Position numbers and translations under genes: made by a program. From contig CAVPKN010000012.1 of NCBI GenBank assembly GCA_963705695.1, positions 12,702 through 76,701 on the forward strand: a DNA stretch of 64,000 nucleotides, in the 5' to 3' direction. The first letter of the stretch is position 1, and the number at the start of each line of letters is the position of its first letter. This DNA is from an uncultured Chlamydiales bacterium. Lineage in GTDB: Bacteria > Chlamydiota > Chlamydiia > Chlamydiales > JAAKFR01. Shown one piece after another: positions 2,009 through 53,421 of the stretch. A model generated the notes under the pieces. The model was given only the letters and a program-made list of their open reading frames with translations. It did not search any database and was not told the DNA's origin.

Positions 2009-2175
2009 ATGAACCTATCTTACTATTGGCAAAAAGTGCTTTTTAAGTCTTTTTCCGCATCTTTTAGAGCCATTTCTCGGCCTACTTACCAAAGTATGTC
2101 CTTCGAAACGGCTCTAAAATCTGCAAAAAAAAATCCTTTATAAATCACATTTTTCGAATATTGAGATAGGTTCAT
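2009..2175. mobile_element. Family A palindromic MITE-like element, copy 1
   Basis: Ends ATGAACCTATC / GATAGGTTCAT; body matches 7154-7318, 20924-21111, 50961-51137. Confidence 0.9.
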
Positions 2176-2798
2176 CCATATTTGACAGCGATTCCCCAAA
2201 GGATGTCCGCAATATCTTCACATTTGTCAATGGCAAATTCGATAAAATCGTAGATCTCTTTCCATTTGATAATTTCTATTGCATTCGTTTCGTTTTGGAA
2301 GAGTTCCCCAAGCGCCTTTTCATAAAGTGCGTCCCCCTTGTTTTCCAAATCGTGAATATTAATGCAGAGGGGGAATAGGGCAGATATCTCTTTGAATCCC
2401 CTCATTTTATGAATGGCAAGATGGACCGAGTGGGCTGCTTGTTGGAAGAGATCAACCATCTCTTTCAAATACGTCTTGATCTCTACAATTCGAAACAAGA
2501 ACATCCGTTGGCTTAAATCGTTGACATGGTCGACAAGATCATCGATTTTTTTAGTCAGTTGATGGATCTCTTCCCGATCGATCGGCGTGATGAAGGTTTT
2601 ATTCAATTTGATCATGATCTCATGAACGATCTGATCACACTCATGCTCTAGGTCTCGAATCAGCTGTAAATGAGGATGGGTGATATGCCACTCAAGAACT
2701 AAAACCTTAAACGCACCGACGGCCTCCTCGCTTTTTGACGTCAGCCGTTCGAGCAGCCGGTAGAAAATATCACCCTTCGGCAATAAACTGAATCGCAT
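2172..2798 (-). CDS. DUF47/PhoU-like phosphate transport regulator
   Basis: LEHECD...FITPIDRE and ENKGD...KWKEIY...DKCED motifs; directly upstream of pit. Confidence 0.9.
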   Translation of the reverse strand: MRFSLLPKGDIFYRLLERLTSKSEEAVGAFKVLVLEWHITHPHLQLIRDLEHECDQIVHEIMIKLNKTFITPIDREEIHQLTKKIDDLVDHVNDLSQRMFLFRIVEIKTYLKEMVDLFQQAAHSVHLAIHKMRGFKEISALFPLCINIHDLENKGDALYEKALGELFQNETNAIEIIKWKEIYDFIEFAIDKCEDIADILWGIAVKYG

Positions 2799-7153: not shown

Positions 7154-7318
7154 ATGAACCTATCTCACTATTGGCAAAAAGTGCTTTTTAAGTCTTTTTC
7201 CGCATTTTTTAGAGCCTTTTCTCCGCCTACTTACCAAAGTATGTCCTTCGAAACGGCTCTAAAATCTGCAAAAAAATCCTTTAAAAATCACATTTTTCGA
7301 ATAGTGAGATAGGTTCAT
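7154..7318. mobile_element. Family A palindromic MITE-like element, copy 2
   Basis: IR ATGAACCTATCTCACTATT / AATAGTGAGATAGGTTCAT; 165 bp. Confidence 0.9.
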
Positions 7319-16719: not shown

Positions 16720-17844
16720 ATGCGGGCTTTCATTCTTTATTTTGCGATTCTATTGTGGAGTGCCGGGTGCAGTAAGCCGACGGAAAAACCGCCGGTCAGC
16801 GTCGCGGCTTTTTGCGTAGAACCGTATACAGTTCCTGCTAAATTCCAGTTTGTCGGCGTCGCCAAAAGCTCCCATCCCGTTGAGATCCGAGCCCGAGTTG
16901 AAGGATATCTCATTGCGATCGACTATCTTGAAGGGAGTATGGTTGATAAAGATAAGCTCCTCTTTGAACTCGATCACCGCCCCTTTATAGCCAGCGTCGA
17001 TTCAGCCAAGGGGGCGCTTGCTAGAGAAGAGGCGATCTTGTGGCGAGCCAAAGAAAATCTCAAACGGATAGAACCTCTTTACAAGGAAAACGCGGCCAGC
17101 GAGAGGGATTTAGATAATGCAATTGCTCAAGTATTGGCAGCAGAAGCTGCGGTGATTATTGCAAAGGCCAATCTTTTCCAAGCAGAACTCAATTTGAGCT
17201 ATAGTTATATTACCTCCCCCATCCGAGGTTTAACACAAAGAGCGTTGTTTCGTGAGGGATCCTTAATCACACCCAACGTGAATGGCTTATTGACAGAGGT
17301 CTCCGTCATCGACCCAATCTGGGTCTATTTTTCGGTATCAGATAACGAATTGCTCGCTGCAAAATCTCAAGGCGCAACAGAGAGTTTGATCTTGCCAAAA
17401 GAGGAAAATTACACGGTCACTTTAGAGATGGCCGACGGCTCGCTCTATCCTCATCAAGGGAAAGTGAATTTTCTATCCCCCACTCTCGATCCAAAAACAG
17501 GAACGATGACAGTGCGTGCCGAATTTCCAAATCCCAAAAGTGAAATTTTACCAGGACAGTTTGTCCGCGCTTATGTCTCAGGAGCTTTACGCCCCAATGC
17601 TCTTTTAGTTCCCCAAGAATCGGTCTTTCAAGGAAACAATGGGAAGCACGTTTGGGTGATTGGTGCCGACCAAACGGTCTCCTTACGCTCAGTAGAGACG
17701 GGAAGCTGGTATCAAAATTATTGGGTCATACAAAAAGGACTGCGGCCAGGTGAACATGTGGTCGCTTCAGGTACAAATAAGGTGCAAAATGGCGCCCAAG
17801 TCAACGTGACAGCAACATCCACTTTTAAAGCGGAAGTGGAATGA
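16720..17844 (+). CDS. RND efflux periplasmic adaptor (AcrA-like)
   Basis: Lipoprotein signal AGC; VEIRARVEG, ITSPIRG, LPGQFV. Confidence 0.92.
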   Translation: MRAFILYFAILLWSAGCSKPTEKPPVSVAAFCVEPYTVPAKFQFVGVAKSSHPVEIRARVEGYLIAIDYLEGSMVDKDKLLFELDHRPFIASVDSAKGALAREEAILWRAKENLKRIEPLYKENAASERDLDNAIAQVLAAEAAVIIAKANLFQAELNLSYSYITSPIRGLTQRALFREGSLITPNVNGLLTEVSVIDPIWVYFSVSDNELLAAKSQGATESLILPKEENYTVTLEMADGSLYPHQGKVNFLSPTLDPKTGTMTVRAEFPNPKSEILPGQFVRAYVSGALRPNALLVPQESVFQGNNGKHVWVIGADQTVSLRSVETGSWYQNYWVIQKGLRPGEHVVASGTNKVQNGAQVNVTATSTFKAEVE

Positions 17845-20800
17845 TCTCTAAATTCTTCATCAACCGCCCCATTTTCGCCATCGTCATCTCCATTCTCATC
17901 ACATTAGCTGGGGGTGTCGCCTTTTTTAATCTTCCGATTGAACAATATCCAAATATTACGCCACCCCAAATTCAGCTTACTGTTTCATACCCAGGAGCTA
18001 GCGCCCAAACCATCGCCGACACAGTGGCAGCACCCCTCGAAGATCAAATCAATGGCGTCGAGAATATGATCTACATGTATTCTGAAAGCGCTTCAAGTGG
18101 TAATTTGACTCTCAATGTGTTCTTCGAAATCGGATCTGATATCAACCAAGCCCTCAATAATGTCCAAGATCGAGTCGATTTAGCGATGCCAGAACTTCCC
18201 GCAGAGGCTCAAAAAGAAGGTGTCACCGTCAAAAAGCAAACGCCTACGATTTTAATGCTGATTGTGCTTCAAGGGGAGGGAGAAAAATACACCGATCTCT
18301 ACATCAACAATTTTGCAACCATACAGATCGCTGATGCTCTTCAGCGTCTCCCCGGGATCACCAATGCCACTGTCATCAATGCCCGTAACTATGCGATGAG
18401 GGTCTGGCTCCGTCCTGATAAAATGGCACAGCTTGGAATTACAACAACAGATATAGCCGATGCCATCGAAAGCCAAAACACAGACTACCCGATCGGATTG
18501 TTGGGTTACCCTCCGCAAACGCGTCCCACTCCCCTTACGCTTCCAGTGACCGATTTGGGGCGTTTGAGCGAGCCGGCAGACTTCGATAATATCATTCTTA
18601 GAGCGACTCCAGATGGCGCCTCTGTCCTCATTAAAAATATTGGCCATACAGAACTGGGGGCACAAGACTATAGTGTCAGCGGGGCCATTGATGGGAAAAA
18701 CGGCGCTTTCATTGCCATCTACCAAGAGTATGGAGCCAACGCGCTTGACATCGCTAAAGAAGTGCGATCGACTTTAAAGACACTCTCTAAGAGATTTCCC
18801 CAAGGAATTACCTATTCTATACCGTATGACACGACAACCTACATTAAAATTTCGATCCGAGAGGTGGAAAAAACCCTCTTTGAAGCAGCCATTCTCGTTG
18901 CCCTTGTCGTTTTTATCTTCTTACAGAATCTAAGAGCCACATTGATCCCTGTCATTGCCATGGTGGTCTCTATTATTGGATCCTTTTCGGGGATGTATCT
19001 CCTTGACTTCACACTCAACACCTTGACACTGTTTGGACTGGTGCTTGCTATCGGCATTGTGGTTGATGATGCCATTGTCGTCGTAGAGAATGTCGAGAGA
19101 AATATGCATGAGAGGAACCTTTCGCCAAAAGAGGCAGCCCTAAAAGCCATGGAGGAGGTCTCCGGCCCTATTGTGGCTATTGTTTTTGTGCTCTGCGCCG
19201 TCTTTATCCCTGTTGCTTTTTTAGGTGGGATTGCTGGGGAACTCTACAAACAATTTGCCTTAACCATTGCCACCTCGGTGATCTTTTCAGGCATTGTCGC
19301 TCTCACGCTGAGTCCTGTATTGGCTGCACTGTTGTTCAAGCAACATCCGAAGCCAACCAAACTAGGGGCCCTTTTTAACCGTGGACTTCATCGAACGACC
19401 GAATACTACACTCGGGGATCCTCCTGGTTAATCAATCATTCCAAAATAGGTTTGACCATTTTTATACTCCTCATTATCGCCACCCTTCTCTTTTTTAAAA
19501 TGATCCCAACAAGCCTTGTTCCCCAAGAAGATCAAGGGTATCTTTTTGCGTTTGCAACAACTCCTGATGGTTCCAGTTTGGAGCGTGGGCAACAAGTCAC
19601 GGACCTAGTGGGCCCTCTGACCTTGAAACATCCCGCCGTTCGAAATCTGATCTCATTAACTGGTTTTAGCTTGCTTGAAAACCTCAATCGCACGACGGTG
19701 AACACCTATTTCATCATGCTCAAAGATTGGAGTCACAGGCACGCGACCGCTCTACAAGCCCCCGCTGTTTTAAAAAAACTTGGCGAGGAATACCGACAGA
19801 TTGCTGAAGCGCAAGTGTTCCCCTTTAACCCCCCAGCGATTCAGGGTCTTGGCACTGTCGGAGGATTCGAATTTTGGATCATCAATTCAGGTGAAGGGGA
19901 CAACGCCACTTTGGAAACGATCACGAAACAGTTTATAGAGGTGGGGAAAAAAAGGCCTGAGCTGAGTGGTTTAACAACGGCAATCCAGAGCAATTGCATG
20001 CAGATCTTTGCCGATGTAGACAGGACTAAAGCACAGGCACTCAAAGTCCCCATTAAAGAGGTCTATCAAACCCTCCAAAGCCAGCTCGGTTCCGTCTATG
20101 TGAATAATTTTAATAAATATGGCCATGTGTTCCAAGTGATGATCCAAGCAGACCCTGACTTCCGCTCCACTCTTGAGGAGGTCGGCAATATCTATGTCCG
20201 TTCCACCGATCAACACATGATTCCGATCAAAACACTTGTTAACTTCACACCCAGTCAAGGAAGTAATCTGATCAGCCGCTTTAATAATTTCCCTGCAGCT
20301 AAAATCAATGGAGCACCAGGGGAAGGATATAGCTCAGGAGACGCCATGAAAGCGATGGAAGAGATCGCTCAACAGATCCTCCCCGAAACAGTCTCCTATT
20401 CATGGAGTGGGGAAGCGTATGCTGAAAAAACAGCAGGGGGCGCCGGCCCTCTGGCAATCGTGTTTGCCCTCCTGCTCGTATTTTTGATCCTTTCCGCTCT
20501 CTATGAACGGTGGTCCCTACCCGTTGCCATCCTTCTGGGCGTTCCTTTTGGGATCTTAGGGGCTCTTTTTGCTGTCTGGCTCCGCGGCTTAGAAGACGAT
20601 GTTTACTTCCAAATTGGCTTAGTCACTCTCATCGCTCTAGCTTCAAAAAATGCCATTTTAATTGTCGAGTTTGCCATGCAAAAACGGAAGGAGGGGCTCG
20701 ATGCGCGTCAAGCAGCCTTAGATGGCGCCAGGCAGAGGTTCCGCGCCATCCTCATGACCTCCCTCACCTTCATCTTTGGCGTTCTTCCCCTAGTGATCAG

Positions 20801-20927
20801 CACCGGTGCAGGGGCCGCTAGCCGCCACTCCGTAGGCACCGGAGTCATGGGCGGAATGCTCTTTGCCACCCTTTTCGGCATCTTCTTCATCCCCCTTTTC
20901 TACATGCTCCTCGACCGCCGCAAATGA
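17841..20927 (+). CDS. RND efflux permease (AcrB/HAE1)
   Basis: FFINRPIFA, IGIVVDDAIVVVEN, KNAILIVEFA; 1028 aa. Confidence 0.95.
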   Translation: MISKFFINRPIFAIVISILITLAGGVAFFNLPIEQYPNITPPQIQLTVSYPGASAQTIADTVAAPLEDQINGVENMIYMYSESASSGNLTLNVFFEIGSDINQALNNVQDRVDLAMPELPAEAQKEGVTVKKQTPTILMLIVLQGEGEKYTDLYINNFATIQIADALQRLPGITNATVINARNYAMRVWLRPDKMAQLGITTTDIADAIESQNTDYPIGLLGYPPQTRPTPLTLPVTDLGRLSEPADFDNIILRATPDGASVLIKNIGHTELGAQDYSVSGAIDGKNGAFIAIYQEYGANALDIAKEVRSTLKTLSKRFPQGITYSIPYDTTTYIKISIREVEKTLFEAAILVALVVFIFLQNLRATLIPVIAMVVSIIGSFSGMYLLDFTLNTLTLFGLVLAIGIVVDDAIVVVENVERNMHERNLSPKEAALKAMEEVSGPIVAIVFVLCAVFIPVAFLGGIAGELYKQFALTIATSVIFSGIVALTLSPVLAALLFKQHPKPTKLGALFNRGLHRTTEYYTRGSSWLINHSKIGLTIFILLIIATLLFFKMIPTSLVPQEDQGYLFAFATTPDGSSLERGQQVTDLVGPLTLKHPAVRNLISLTGFSLLENLNRTTVNTYFIMLKDWSHRHATALQAPAVLKKLGEEYRQIAEAQVFPFNPPAIQGLGTVGGFEFWIINSGEGDNATLETITKQFIEVGKKRPELSGLTTAIQSNCMQIFADVDRTKAQALKVPIKEVYQTLQSQLGSVYVNNFNKYGHVFQVMIQADPDFRSTLEEVGNIYVRSTDQHMIPIKTLVNFTPSQGSNLISRFNNFPAAKINGAPGEGYSSGDAMKAMEEIAQQILPETVSYSWSGEAYAEKTAGGAGPLAIVFALLLVFLILSALYERWSLPVAILLGVPFGILGALFAVWLRGLEDDVYFQIGLVTLIALASKNAILIVEFAMQKRKEGLDARQAALDGARQRFRAILMTSLTFIFGVLPLVISTGAGAASRHSVGTGVMGGMLFATLFGIFFIPLFYMLLDRRK

Positions 20928-21111
20928 ACCTGTCCCATTATTAGACCTCTTGCGTAATTAAATGACGTCATTTAATTGCGCAAGAGGTCTATTCGAAAAA
21001 TATGATTTTTAAAGGCTTTTTTTGCAGATTTTAGAGCCGCTTCGAAGGGCATACTTGAGATGCGGAAAAAGAGCCAAAACGCATTTTTTGCCAATAGTGG
21101 GATAGGTTCAT
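20924..21111. mobile_element. Family A element, copy 3 (internal deletion, nested insertion)
   Basis: ATGAACCTGTC...GATAGGTTCAT; supplies the TGA stop of the RND gene. Confidence 0.85.
20942..20991. repeat. Family E 50-bp palindrome nested in Family A
   Basis: TAGACCTCTTGCGTAATTAAATGAC|GTCATTTAATTGCGCAAGAGGTCTA, one mismatch. Confidence 0.85.
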
Positions 21112-49520: not shown

Positions 49521-50962
49521 AAATACGCCAACTCTTGAGCTATTTTCCGATCATCAAAGGGAATTGTCTGATAAGAAAAATGTTGGTATGTTTCATGCCC
49601 TTTTCCCGCAATTAAGATCAAGTCTTTAGCATTTGCCATGCCGATTGCTCTCTCAATGGCTTCTTTCCGATCGAGGACAATGGTATAATTACTTTGAGAA
49701 AAGCCCGTTGCAATCTCATCACATATTTGCTTAGGCACTTCCGATCGAGGATTGTCAGAGGTGATGATGGTAAAGTCACTCCCCTCTTCAGCGGCCTTCC
49801 CCATTTTTGCCCGTTTCCCCCGATCTCGGTCTCCACCACAGCCGAACACGGTGATAATCTTTCCTTGTTTGATCTCCCGTAAACAATGGAGCACCTTCTC
49901 CAAGGCATCAGGGGTATGGGCATAATCGACAAAGATATTGAGATTCCGTCCGTTTTTAACTCGCTCTAGCCTGCCTGGGACTGAATAAAATGTCTCCAGC
50001 AGTGGAGGAAGGGAAGAGAGTGAGATTCCCCTTGCTAAGCAAACTGCTAGGGCACCGAGAACATTGAAAATATTATATCTCCCAATCAAGTGAGAGTGGA
50101 ATAGAACCCGCTCCGAGCGATAATTCACATAGAAGGTGGTGTCGTGATCGCTCAATGTGATCGTGTCGGCATAAAGATCATTTTGAGCACTCAATCCATA
50201 GCGTAAAACAGGGGCTTTACACCCCTTAATCATCACGTCTGCCCATGGCGAATCTCCGTTGACGATCGCGAAACTATCTCCGTCGAGCATTTTGAATAAT
50301 TTGGCTTTCTCCTCTGCGTAGGCCTCAAGTGTCAGATGGTAGTCGAGATGGTCTTGCGTCAAGTTGGTAAAGAGCGCCACATCGTAGGCAATTTGCTGGC
50401 ACCGCCCTTGTGCCAACCCTTGAGAAGAGGTCTCCATGACCGCCGCCTTACACCCATGTCGCACCATCTCCCTTAATAGCTTTTGATTTGTAATGGCGTC
50501 GGGCGTGGTTAATTTGGCCTCTAGGCGCAGCTCCCCAATCAGATATTCGATCGTACCGATCAATCCACAAGGGGAGCCGGCAAGATCGAAAAAGTGTTTA
50601 ATGAGGTAGGTGGTTGTAGTCTTTCCATTTGTCCCAGTCACTCCTATAGTGAAGAGCGATTCTGAGGGGTGGCCGTAGAAGCGGGCAGCTAAATGGGCTT
50701 CAACTTCAGAAGTAGCGGGGTGAATCAACTGGGTCACTTTTTTTAAGAAGGGGTTGGGAAGATCTGTTAAAATGGCCACGGCTCCGGCATCGATCGCCTC
50801 GTCGATATATCTGCTTCCATCATCAACCCTCCCTTTTTTTGCGATAAAAAGATCGCCGGGGGCAACTAACTTTGAATGGAGAGAAAGACCAGTGATCTCA
50901 AGATCTTGTGCTCCTTTGTATAGTTCGATCGGCAAGTCGGCAATTAATTTTTTTAGTTTCAT
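49517..50962 (-). CDS. murE: UDP-MurNAc-tripeptide synthetase
   Basis: GVTGTNGKTT, VDYAHTPD, DNPR, AGKGHE. Confidence 0.96.
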   Translation of the reverse strand: MKLKKLIADLPIELYKGAQDLEITGLSLHSKLVAPGDLFIAKKGRVDDGSRYIDEAIDAGAVAILTDLPNPFLKKVTQLIHPATSEVEAHLAARFYGHPSESLFTIGVTGTNGKTTTTYLIKHFFDLAGSPCGLIGTIEYLIGELRLEAKLTTPDAITNQKLLREMVRHGCKAAVMETSSQGLAQGRCQQIAYDVALFTNLTQDHLDYHLTLEAYAEEKAKLFKMLDGDSFAIVNGDSPWADVMIKGCKAPVLRYGLSAQNDLYADTITLSDHDTTFYVNYRSERVLFHSHLIGRYNIFNVLGALAVCLARGISLSSLPPLLETFYSVPGRLERVKNGRNLNIFVDYAHTPDALEKVLHCLREIKQGKIITVFGCGGDRDRGKRAKMGKAAEEGSDFTIITSDNPRSEVPKQICDEIATGFSQSNYTIVLDRKEAIERAIGMANAKDLILIAGKGHETYQHFSYQTIPFDDRKIAQELAYL

Positions 50963-51137
50963 GAACCTATCCCACTATTCGCAAAATGTGATTTTTAAAG
51001 GATTTTTTTGCATCTTTTAGAGCCGCTTCGAAGGGCATACTTTGGTAAGTAGGCCAAGAAGCGGCTCTAAAAGATGCGGAAAAAGAGTTTAAAGCCGAGG
51101 TTAAACAGCCTTTTTGCCAATAATGGGATAGGTTCAT
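50961..51137. mobile_element. Family A element, copy 4, between ftsI and murE
   Basis: ATGAACCTATCCCA...TGGGATAGGTTCAT; overlaps both the ftsI stop and the murE start. Confidence 0.92.
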
Positions 51138-53119
51138 AGGTTCCAGGCATCGTAGAGGAGTTTGAGCTCCTTAAGTTCTTTCAACCAATCTGCTTTTTCT
51201 GGGCAAGAGCGGGGATCACCTGTGGGGTAGCCATAGGGATCATCGGGAGAGACTCCTAGATATTGGAGCGTTCTTCTGGCGATCTCTTTAAACACCGGCC
51301 CCGCACACCGCCCCCCCATCTGATTTTTGGCTCCATTTTCCAAGACCATGGCTTTTGGCTCATCGATCGACACAATCAATACAAACCGCGCAGGGATCAC
51401 CTCTTCCTCTACAACTGCAGGAATAAATCCGATGAAAGAGGAGATGTGGAGTTTTTTATTGTACTCTCCATTGACAATCTTCTCTGCTGTCCCCGTCTTT
51501 CCCGCTTTGGTGTAGCCATTGATATCTGCCAAATGGCTATCGCCCCCCGGTTTCGTCGAATATTTCATCGCTTTAACCACTTCTTTGACAATTTCATTCT
51601 CCAATACACGGGGAAAATCTTCACGCCGCATTTTATTCTCATAAAGTACAGTATCGCCTGCGACAATTTTACGCACTAATGTAGGTCTTGTTAGATATCC
51701 GCCATTGGCAAACACAGCATACGCCCTGAGCATTTGAAGGCTCGTTGCCAAAATATTGTAGCCGATGGCTAATGAGTAAGGAGTTGGTACAGACCACTCT
51801 AATGCGCCGCTAGGATGGAGCTTTCCTGGCCTAGGGACTAATCCCACAGCCTCTGCGGGGAGCTCAATCCCCGTTTTTCCTCCAAATCCAAATGTTTCAA
51901 CAAGTTGTTTCCGATACCATTCATTACCTAGGGAAGCAATCACTCGGTCCACAATCTGCGCAAAATAAACATTGGAGGATTTTTGGATCGCCATGTACAT
52001 ATTCATGGCACGGTGTTGCCGAGGCCTATCGATCAAAGGGCGGCTTGCCCGACCTGGAAAAATACTCCGTGTCGTATCGATTTTATCTGAAGGCTCAAAA
52101 AGGGTTTTTTTTCCCTGCTTCTTGAGCTCCTCATTCGCTTTTAAACCGATAGCCACCGTGATGGGCTTCATGATCGAACCGATCTCAAATGCGTCGGTGA
52201 TCGCTTTCACTTTGGCGTTCTCTATCTTATCAGGATCATTGAAATATTCCCGATAATTTGAGGGGTCAAAAAAGGGGTACTGCGCCAAGGCTAAAATTTC
52301 ACCTGAAGCAGGATCCATCATCACGGCCCACCCTCCCTTCGCCTGCGCTGTGAGGACCCCCTTTTCGAGCTCCTCTTCAGTTATCGATTGGATGCAGTGG
52401 TTGATGGTGAGGTAGAGATCGGCGCCATCTTCAGGCCGGACGAGAATGTGATCGCTATCGAGTTGATTGAGTGGGGAGCGGAGCAGTTTCCGTTTCCCTT
52501 GCCGCCCTTTAAGATACTGATTGAAGTAGGCTTCGAGCCCTCCTGTGGGCAAACCTTCCGCAGTTTGCTCATCTTTCATCTCCCTTATTGTATGGAGCAC
52601 TTGTCCCAGCGATTGCCCAAAAGGGTAGCAACGGCGGTAGTCGGAGATAAAATAAAGGGCATTGGAGGCAATTTTATGTTGCCGCGCGTAAGGGGACCAC
52701 CAACGCAAGATCGCTTCTTTACATTCTTGATCGAGCCACGGCATGATCTTCCGGCTCCGGCTTTTTAAGGCAAACTCCTTACCGATCTCTGGTCCCAGAG
52801 GGAAAAACGAGCCCAATTTGCGGATGATCTCCTCTCGACACCGTGCAGGAATTGAGAGTGGGTCGACGTAGAGATGAAATTTAGTGACATCGATAGCAAG
52901 AGGTTGTGGGGACTCGGGATGCCCCTTTTTAATCGCGGTATTACTGTAAAAGGTCCCCCTTCGAAATGGCTCTTTCACAACCACTTCATGTTGTCCGTGT
53001 GCTTCCCGCTTCCATTTCTCAGTTTCTAGAACTTGAATTTTAAAATATTGAGCAATTAGCAAAGAGTAGAGAAAAAAGAGACTTAAGGCAACGATCAACA
53101 CCCTTTTTTTCTCTCTCAC
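51134..53119 (-). CDS. ftsI: Penicillin-binding protein 3
   Basis: GSIMK (SxxK), SSN, KTG motifs. Confidence 0.94.
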   Translation of the reverse strand: MREKKRVLIVALSLFFLYSLLIAQYFKIQVLETEKWKREAHGQHEVVVKEPFRRGTFYSNTAIKKGHPESPQPLAIDVTKFHLYVDPLSIPARCREEIIRKLGSFFPLGPEIGKEFALKSRSRKIMPWLDQECKEAILRWWSPYARQHKIASNALYFISDYRRCYPFGQSLGQVLHTIREMKDEQTAEGLPTGGLEAYFNQYLKGRQGKRKLLRSPLNQLDSDHILVRPEDGADLYLTINHCIQSITEEELEKGVLTAQAKGGWAVMMDPASGEILALAQYPFFDPSNYREYFNDPDKIENAKVKAITDAFEIGSIMKPITVAIGLKANEELKKQGKKTLFEPSDKIDTTRSIFPGRASRPLIDRPRQHRAMNMYMAIQKSSNVYFAQIVDRVIASLGNEWYRKQLVETFGFGGKTGIELPAEAVGLVPRPGKLHPSGALEWSVPTPYSLAIGYNILATSLQMLRAYAVFANGGYLTRPTLVRKIVAGDTVLYENKMRREDFPRVLENEIVKEVVKAMKYSTKPGGDSHLADINGYTKAGKTGTAEKIVNGEYNKKLHISSFIGFIPAVVEEEVIPARFVLIVSIDEPKAMVLENGAKNQMGGRCAGPVFKEIARRTLQYLGVSPDDPYGYPTGDPRSCPEKADWLKELKELKLLYDAWNL

Positions 53120-53397: not shown

Positions 53398-53412
53398 GAA
53401 CCTATCCCACTA
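53396..53412. repeat. Solo end of Family A element at the ftsL start
   Basis: ATGAACCTATCCCACTA, identical to 50961-50977. Confidence 0.75.
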
Positions 53413-53421
53413 CATATGCAA

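Follow-up and report, generated by a model that had tools for sequence, protein, structure and literature searches.

We analysed a 64,000-nucleotide stretch of the genome of an uncultured Chlamydiales bacterium (the window) together with the assembly that holds it (G000; 1.87 Mb, 43 contigs, 75% complete). The window contains four full copies of a 161-bp repeat family, here called family A, with the nine-letter end motif GAACCTATC. This motif occurs eight times in the window (0.33 expected), and the GAACCTATC ends form four inverted pairs plus one solo end at 53398. AT is present on both flanks of all four full copies. The first-pass annotation had described a family resembling MITEs (miniature inverted-repeat transposable elements), flanked by AT, whose ends rebuild translation signals; reading the junctions confirms the four copies with their flanks, and the description is supported.

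Copy 4 lies between an ftsI-like penicillin-binding protein (PBP) gene and murE, and its right end faces the murE ATG. The PBP gene stops at a TGA made from the flanking T and the GA of the element. An ATG at 51137-51135 overlaps this stop (51136-51134) as ATGA and begins an open reading frame (ORF) that crosses the element to a TAG at 50969-50967, 4 nt ahead of the murE ATG. This frame, which we call the relay frame, was correctly read in the first-pass annotation, as was the effect of the 12 bp by which copy 4 exceeds copy 2: the frame stays open, at 56 rather than 52 codons. Because murE needs its own ATG, one of the two AT flanks belongs to the host.

Two other copies also supply stop codons. 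The right end of copy 1 provides the TGA of a convergent DUF47 (PhoU_div) gene, and that of copy 3 the TGA of an AcrB-family RND gene (assignments from ORF ends and Pfam); as in the PBP gene, the flank contributes the T of this TGA and the element its GA. When the core is taken out together with one AT, the DUF47 gene again reads GGA TAG and the RND gene AAA TAA, and the ATGA overlap of ftsI and murE reappears, as had been claimed. Copy 2 is intergenic, on neither a start nor a stop codon. A PHO4 phosphate-transporter ORF begins 20 nt past the left end of copy 1.

The solo end at 53398 is a right-end remnant whose adjoining ATG opens an ORF of 93 codons; this ORF, located between rsmH/mraW and the PBP gene, matches no Pfam family. 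This remnant and copy 4 together mean that the dcw cluster has been struck twice. The remnant alone separates the rsmH/mraW stop from the 93-codon ORF, at the place where ftsL usually lies. Copy 3 carries a nested palindrome of ~50 bp from another small repeat family, and BLASTN finds similar pieces elsewhere in G000, for example on contigs C12, C20, C15 and C37.

Table 1. Family A copies, associated features and neighbouring genes. Positions without a contig name are those of the window; C numbers are contigs of G000.
Feature	Position	Strand	Detail
Copy 1	2011..2173	+	163 bp; relay frame broken
DUF47 (PhoU_div) gene	2172..2798	-	convergent with copy 1
Copy 2	7156..7316	+	161 bp, near family consensus; relay frame intact
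AcrB-family RND gene	17841..20927	+
Copy 3	20926..21109	-	184 bp; relay frame broken by nested palindrome
Palindrome nested in copy 3	~20942-20991		~50 bp
Native murE start codon	50960..50962	-	directly abuts copy 4 right end
Copy 4 with both AT flanks	50961..51137	-	core 50963-51135, 173 bp
Relay ORF of copy 4	50967..51137	-	56 codons; no Pfam family
ftsI-like PBP gene	51134..53119	-
Solo right-end remnant	53398..53421	+ (as read)	~24 nt; abuts ATG 53397-53395 (-)
Copy with right-type sequence in both arms	C3:4846-5006
Asd ORF behind a truncated copy	C17:8337-8612
Contig edge at end motif	C40:2-18
Shared-termini element, example	C16:88364-88613
Shared-termini element, example	C31:16532-16707
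Shared-termini element, example	C26:18552-18620
Shared-termini element, example	C15:23628-23663

We gathered family A copies from G000 by BLASTN with the four window copies as queries, which yielded 69 clusters, far more than chance would give, and 30 loci with both ends. All copies were oriented as copy 2; the two ends are identical for 17 letters and then diverge, so that each can be typed as left or right. An end was called start-located when it abuts an ATG that opens an ORF of 80 codons or more, as judged with a crude ORF model made with no gene finder. Among 41 right ends, 35 have the AT flank, 26 are followed by an outward ATG and 20 are start-located. The 30 left ends include 27 with the AT flank, a single outward ATG and no start-located case (right versus left, Fisher p=1.5e-6). 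By chance, an ATG opening such an ORF would be met at 3.3% of all oriented AT sites in G000 (binomial p=2.5e-19 for 20/41), or at 2.3% of AT sites with a non-coding upstream base (p=3.5e-22). Copies within one genome are related, so these and all later p-values overstate independence. No upstream gene terminates at the site in 13 of the 20 start-located cases.

Full-length NCBIfam models begin no more than five residues from the junction ATG for MurE, DnaB, AsnS, NadE, HldE domain I, an RNase RNM-like protein and Asd, and a MetI model begins within 12 residues. The MurE equivalog model places residues 1-478 on model positions 1-481 of 486. In three other genomes of the genus (G001-G003, of which G003 is complete), the murE orthologues begin with the same residues, MKLKKL. 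The ftsI-murE junctions of these genomes are empty, with murE starting 2, 4 or 9 nt after the PBP stop; relatives thus hold the empty site that the first-pass reading of copy 4 as an insertion implied. The reverse comparison gives the same picture: of ten genes that bear the element in relatives, five have a G000 orthologue that begins at the same Met after an ordinary, element-free leader, while the other five alignments were uninformative and for one further gene no G000 orthologue was found. On the evidence of these models and alignments, we take the junction ATGs to be true gene starts. The Asd ORF on contig C17, behind a truncated copy, has only 91 codons against a model of ~350 positions, and may be a broken gene or an assembly problem.

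Family A is found in each of the three other genomes of the genus, and its range extends to several further genera of the family (9 of 40 relatives). A hairpin-tip pattern, which fixes alignment columns 72-100, was scanned through one genome per species and found 74 stretches, all in metagenome-assembled genomes (MAGs) labelled chlamydial or, in a few cases, Verrucomicrobiae. In MAGs other than G000, 56 of 76 matches have both ends, and 47 of these 56 are exactly 161 bp long, which is also the modal length in G000 (21 of 30 loci). An ATG with a long ORF follows 32 of the 56 right ends and 3 of the 56 left ends. This set includes the G001-G003 copies and overlaps the copies first fetched from relatives, in which an ATG follows the right end in 11 of 15. 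Pieces of the window also appear as short Logan contigs in three soil DNA runs of one study. No contig among them spans the element or shows a junction, and the runs with matches include no RNA run.

Several features identify family A as a MITE. The copies are small, dispersed and without an internal transposase gene; they have terminal inverted repeats (identical over 17 nt in copy 2, and co-varying between sub-families) and empty orthologous sites. The mRNA-sense transcript of copy 4 is predicted to fold into one long hairpin (-91 kcal/mol, z -12.7) in which the rebuilt left ATG is base-paired to the segment that extends to the murE ATG and includes it; the hairpin of copy 2 is predicted at -70.9 kcal/mol (z -9.6). 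RNAalifold predicts 54 pairs on an alignment of 48 copies, and 27 of these show compensatory changes. The element gave no Rfam 15 match at gathering score, with only one tRNA detected in the whole window, and a promoter scan found no sigma-70-like promoter in copy 4. One copy on contig C3 has right-type sequence in both arms and is a more perfect palindrome; it occupies an ATGA site between upstream and downstream ORFs of 197 and 226 codons.

The relay frame is the only reading frame that family A keeps open. With the last 16 nt of the element ignored, the frame from the rebuilt left ATG (+0) is stop-free in 42 of 56 copies in other MAGs and in 22 of 29 in G000, while each of the five remaining frames is open in 0-5 of the 56 and 0-2 of the 29. 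The peptide is not conserved in the same way. Column variability is independent of codon position (means 0.73, 0.71 and 0.70; p=0.92), and species consensus peptides are only 50-60% identical. The absence of codon-phase bias implies that openness is preserved and the peptide is not, so that frame conservation among copies, raised in the first-pass annotation, holds for the one and fails for the other.

Retention of the frame depends on location. We defined a copy as relay-competent when a frame of at least 45 codons runs from the left-junction ATG to a stop no further than 17 nt ahead of the native ATG or 12 nt past it. On that definition 41 of 47 start-located copies are relay-competent, compared with 20 of 38 others (Fisher p=0.0006), and the difference is seen both in G000 (13/15 versus 6/14) and in the other MAGs (28/32 versus 14/24). 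Across the 61 relay-competent copies, the distance from the stop to the native ATG downstream is 4 nt in 46, 10 nt in 6, 16 nt in 5 and 17 nt in 1; two end in an ATGA overlap, and one ends 11 nt past the A of the ATG. Both overlapping copies derive from 162-bp variants. In such variants from other MAGs (L051, L066 and L007), the frame skips the usual TAG and ends in the TGA of a host ATGA overlap. Start-located copies of altered length differ by +12 or -12 bp, and the TAG-ending frame remains open over 52-74 codons in all but one of the six start-located copies that are truncated on the left. Four-letter motifs resembling Shine-Dalgarno (SD) sequences lie upstream of the left ATG in 14 of 48 start-located copies and 4 of 38 others.

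These observations suggest a mechanism. We consider it likely that family A is a non-autonomous 161-bp hairpin transposon of environmental chlamydiae, and that its insertions on start codons are made harmless by a translational relay through the hairpin. The element would insert at an AT dinucleotide, preferably one preceded by pyrimidine-pyrimidine-T, and leave AT on both sides. Of the copies that survive, about half occupy the AT of a gene's start codon, and it is always the same end that points to the gene. There the left AT and the first G of the element form a new ATG behind the gene's own ribosome-binding region, and the same letters, read as A-TGA, supply a stop for an upstream gene that formerly overlapped by ATGA. 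From the new ATG a frame of ~52 codons crosses both hairpin arms to a TAG 4 nt before the native ATG or, in sub-families, to a stop 10 or 16 nt before it or in an ATGA overlap. Using the gene's leader, ribosomes would begin at the rebuilt ATG; after an overlapping upstream gene, they would begin again at that ATG once they had translated the gene. While translating, they would keep the very stable hairpin, which would otherwise pair both start codons, from closing, and they would terminate beside the native ATG and re-initiate there by termination-reinitiation coupling. Start-codon insertions, even in essential genes and operons, would thus be tolerated and hard to lose, and copies elsewhere would decay.

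The translational relay had been proposed in the first-pass annotation. Comparative evidence favours it, in that the relay frame is the only open one and is kept preferentially on starts; translation of the frame and re-initiation at its end we infer from the positions and orientation of the copies, the rebuilt signals, the link between open frame and start site, the conserved pairing and the empty orthologous sites, all of which are observed directly. The relative weight of target choice and selection we likewise infer.

Several points weigh against this interpretation. Six of the 47 start-located full copies have no relay frame, and right-end remnants with no frame also abut starts: the 24 nt at 53398 and ~37 nt ahead of a 372-codon ORF. 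The remnants fit a relay that is needed only while the hairpin exists, and show that a leader can consist of the right end alone. The frame is kept in 20 of 38 copies away from starts, so its openness is partly inherited from recent master copies. Stop-gaining variants show no significant deficit in G000 (2 seen, 3.3 expected, a comparison with no power). Simulated frame retention in four lineages gave 0.47, 0.26, 0.40 and 0.27, jointly ~0.013; the lineages are related and the result is suggestive only. The hairpin pairs the left ATG, which would make fresh initiation hard unless it is co-transcriptional, before the right arm is made. The proposed AT target-site duplication is deduced from flanks rather than seen in an allelic empty site. 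Finally, sibling families that share the termini of family A live in ordinary intergenic sites, so selection alone fails to explain why half of the copies are on starts, and further targeting or differential loss remains needed beyond an oriented TATG preference.

The start excess could have one of several causes: extra targeting, faster loss elsewhere, or a ratchet in which imprecise deletion at a start is lethal. Start-located copies look older, as faster loss elsewhere would have it: median nearest-copy identity is 0.963 for them and 0.988 for others, a difference that is not significant (p=0.19). Of the 11 youngest copies, 6 are on starts. It is conceivable, though on balance unlikely, that family A actively homes to starts and is not just sorted by selection. 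A transposase, or some process associated with translation or single-stranded DNA, would then read YYT-AT-G (Y, pyrimidine) in an oriented manner, and the hairpin and relay frame would act as a portable gate tying captured genes to ongoing translation.

Target preference could also act with no such link to translation. If the element merely prefers motifs like YYT-AT-G and its insertions inside genes are lost, the relay frame would be incidental. Sites struck do share a signature: T precedes the AT in 36 of 48 start-located copies, against 39% of start codons generally (p=6e-7), and C is enriched at the two positions ahead of T-AT in reconstructed targets. The reconstructed target YYT-AT-G thus resembles the element's own end, and the youngest copies are already about half on starts. 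However, an oriented TATG preference with all coding hits removed predicts 18% on starts, and 20 of 41 are seen (p=9.5e-6). Sibling MITE families in G000 with the same 11-nt termini have no ends on an ATG with an ORF (0/21 and 0/25); since none of these 46 ends is on a start, the start habit goes with the content of family A, that is, the relay frame, and not with the termini alone. The identical 17-nt repeats offer a transposase no obvious orientation cue, yet 20 right and no left ends in G000 are on starts, and this absolute orientation fits selection after insertion. The integrity of the frame also depends on location. Simple target preference with an incidental frame is therefore, in our judgement, improbable.

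The host flank of copy 4 at 51137-51145 echoes the first eight letters of the element, with GGAACCTAT ahead of GAACCTATC. A second echoing flank, GGAACCAAT, lies on contig C15 of G000 upstream of 21064. These flanks, which could be counted in favour of target preference, suggest that target sites may resemble the element end that a transposase would bind. In the sibling families, AT flanks occur at 13 of 21 ends of the GATAATCA-type, often preceded by T or YT, and at only 5 of 25 ends of the AAAAGT-type. Families sharing the 11-letter termini have lengths of ~250 bp, ~175 bp and 69-70 bp, and a minimal 36-bp element consists of just the two ends.

Another alternative is that the hairpin and upstream ORF have been domesticated as a leader and are kept as useful control, for example as an attenuation-like link between housekeeping-gene expression and ribosome supply. 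The older tendency of start-located copies (not significant, as given above), the compensatory changes in half of the hairpin pairs and the presence of dnaB, murE, asnS and nadE among the genes struck would all suit such a role. The pairing could equally be kept for transposition, and the insertions are lineage-specific, with the ftsI-murE site empty in three genomes and the filled genes of relatives empty in G000, so that long-term retention is seen at no locus. We give domestication little credence.

The first-pass annotation had instead proposed stop codons as the target, with the element inserting at the A|T junction of the last codon and the stop; starts would then be struck only through overlaps. 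Three of the four window copies do lie at such junctions, and at 10 of 71 family ends in G000 the junction TGA closes an ORF of 80 or more codons. The window is unrepresentative in this respect. Genome-wide BLASTN counts give no significant excess of stop-only junctions (2/41 against 1.0% of comparable AT sites, p=0.064), and the marked site is the AT of an ATG start, at half of right ends and at no left end, which is the signature of start codons. In 7 of the 30 full G000 loci the left TGA also closes a long ORF lying upstream, and all seven reconstructed sites are ATGA overlaps. Such overlaps are enriched among struck starts (7/20 against 9.7% in the background, p=0.002), a figure that could be taken to favour stop targeting, and it is because these 7 of 20 start sites are overlaps that upstream stops are rebuilt. 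The 13 start-located ends lacking an upstream gene that ends there, and the eight upstream ORFs in other MAGs that end at a left TGA, all of them at start sites, also speak against it. The stop-codon pattern is a side effect of the start habit where gene pairs overlap, together with a couple of cases at convergent genes, and a rule of stop targeting is very unlikely. That the starts themselves are artefacts, with the ATG belonging to the element or to spurious ORFs and the genes starting further downstream, has next to no probability: 6 of 26 right-end ATGs in G000 open ORFs of fewer than 80 codons and the gene model is crude, but curated full-length models begin at residues 1-5 for seven proteins, orthologues in element-free genomes begin at the same Met, and an in-frame stop is read 12-15 nt upstream, inside the element.

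A transposase with matching terminal repeats, which the first-pass annotation had envisaged, was not found in G000, whose 75% completeness means that absence is not shown: inverted end pairs 400-4000 bp apart enclose no transposase, and instead surround ordinary genes, such as EngA-like and PHP-domain genes. At fetched MAG loci, end pairs enclose DUF3857, F-box-like or unassigned ORFs and no transposase, and the complete genome G003 has only 10 end matches. The best matches to rve (PF00665), DDE_Tnp_1 (PF01609), DDE_3 (PF13358) and DDE_Tnp_1_2 (PF13586) in G000, G041-G044 and relatives are not bounded by family A ends, nor are the fetched PF01797 loci, and an IS5-like element beside a solo end has different terminal repeats. 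A Y1 transposase domain is present in one of five family-carrying genomes, which is neither G000 nor the copy-rich G041. Contig C40 of G000 begins one base before a family end motif, which makes it probable that the assembly is interrupted by repeats of this superfamily.

The closest parallel to family A is provided by mycobacterial interspersed repetitive units (MIRUs), the original work on which is reportedly that of Supply et al. in 1997. MIRUs are direct, often tandem units of ~46-101 bp found in Actinobacteria; they are not known to have terminal inverted repeats or a long hairpin, and their coupling spacing is -4 nt. Family A resembles them as a short repeat located at starts and between cistrons, with an internal ORF joined to the flanking stop and start. 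Unlike them, it takes the form of a single hairpin of 161 bp, with AT flanks and terminal inverted repeats of 17 nt, and occurs in Chlamydiae; the loci read contained no tandem arrays. In most cases its frame stops 4 nt ahead of the ATG, with the ATGA overlap limited to 2 of 61 relay-competent copies; the overlap of the 162-bp variants is like the -4 arrangement of MIRUs. Family A may accordingly be regarded, by analogy, as MIRU-like logic carried on an inverted-repeat hairpin MITE. MIRUs are described in the accessible portion of one article as repeats that 'insert themselves at start codons', with a coupled internal ORF (PMC12548453).

ORF-bearing MITEs are treated in a review by Delihas, in the accessible part of which RPE of Rickettsia, ERIC/IRU, YPAL and the 107-bp Correia/NEMIS elements appear (PMC2229807). 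As far as that part goes, these elements share with family A a length of 100-200 bp, long stem-loop transcripts, terminal inverted repeats, a two-base flank, contiguous open frames and co-transcription with adjacent genes. The same text describes in-frame fusions with host ORFs, or effects on mRNA stability from downstream of genes, and a TA flank, and it makes no mention of a start-codon habit like that of family A (PMC2229807). In family A, by contrast, the frame is a separate cistron with its own start and stop, the flank is AT, and half of the copies are on starts in one orientation. Continuity with the host ORF of the RPE type was not seen, as an in-frame stop precedes the host ATG.

The proposed relay also resembles synthetic bicistronic designs in which, according to the accessible text, a short leader ORF ends at or next to a start and ribosomes melt structure and re-initiate (PMC12548453). 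Those designs are engineered and immobile and have an SD inside the leader ORF, whereas family A is transposon-borne and any internal SD (GGGATAGG) is weak. Elements derived from IS200/IS605, and REPINs, are likewise hairpin-rich and keep a fixed orientation beside a short asymmetric target, as the conserved left YYTAT of family A might suggest. They are not known to have full-length terminal inverted repeats or target duplications, and depend on Y1 transposases. Our literature search on MITEs in chlamydiae found nothing relevant, and a search on MITEs with start or stop codons and ORFs found only the reviews above and unrelated work. A description of a Cardinium MITE, in the part accessible, has no bearing on family A.

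If the proposed relay is correct, family A would be a second case, structurally unrelated to MIRUs, of a mobile repeat that avoids doing harm by passing ribosomes on to the gene into which it has inserted. The carrier here would be a classic inverted-repeat hairpin transposon, in a host phylum whose MITEs are hardly described. Its copies would offer a natural test bed for termination-reinitiation and for the melting of structure by ribosomes. Annotated 'hypothetical proteins' of ~52 codons directly upstream of chlamydial genes may be transposon frames, which calls for caution in annotation. Should active homing prove true, family A would be a natural, self-spreading version of the engineered bicistronic design, with dnaB, murE, asnS and nadE among the genes captured. 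The relay would also illustrate how, in a compact genome, a selfish element can settle on those base pairs of essential genes that are the most sensitive.

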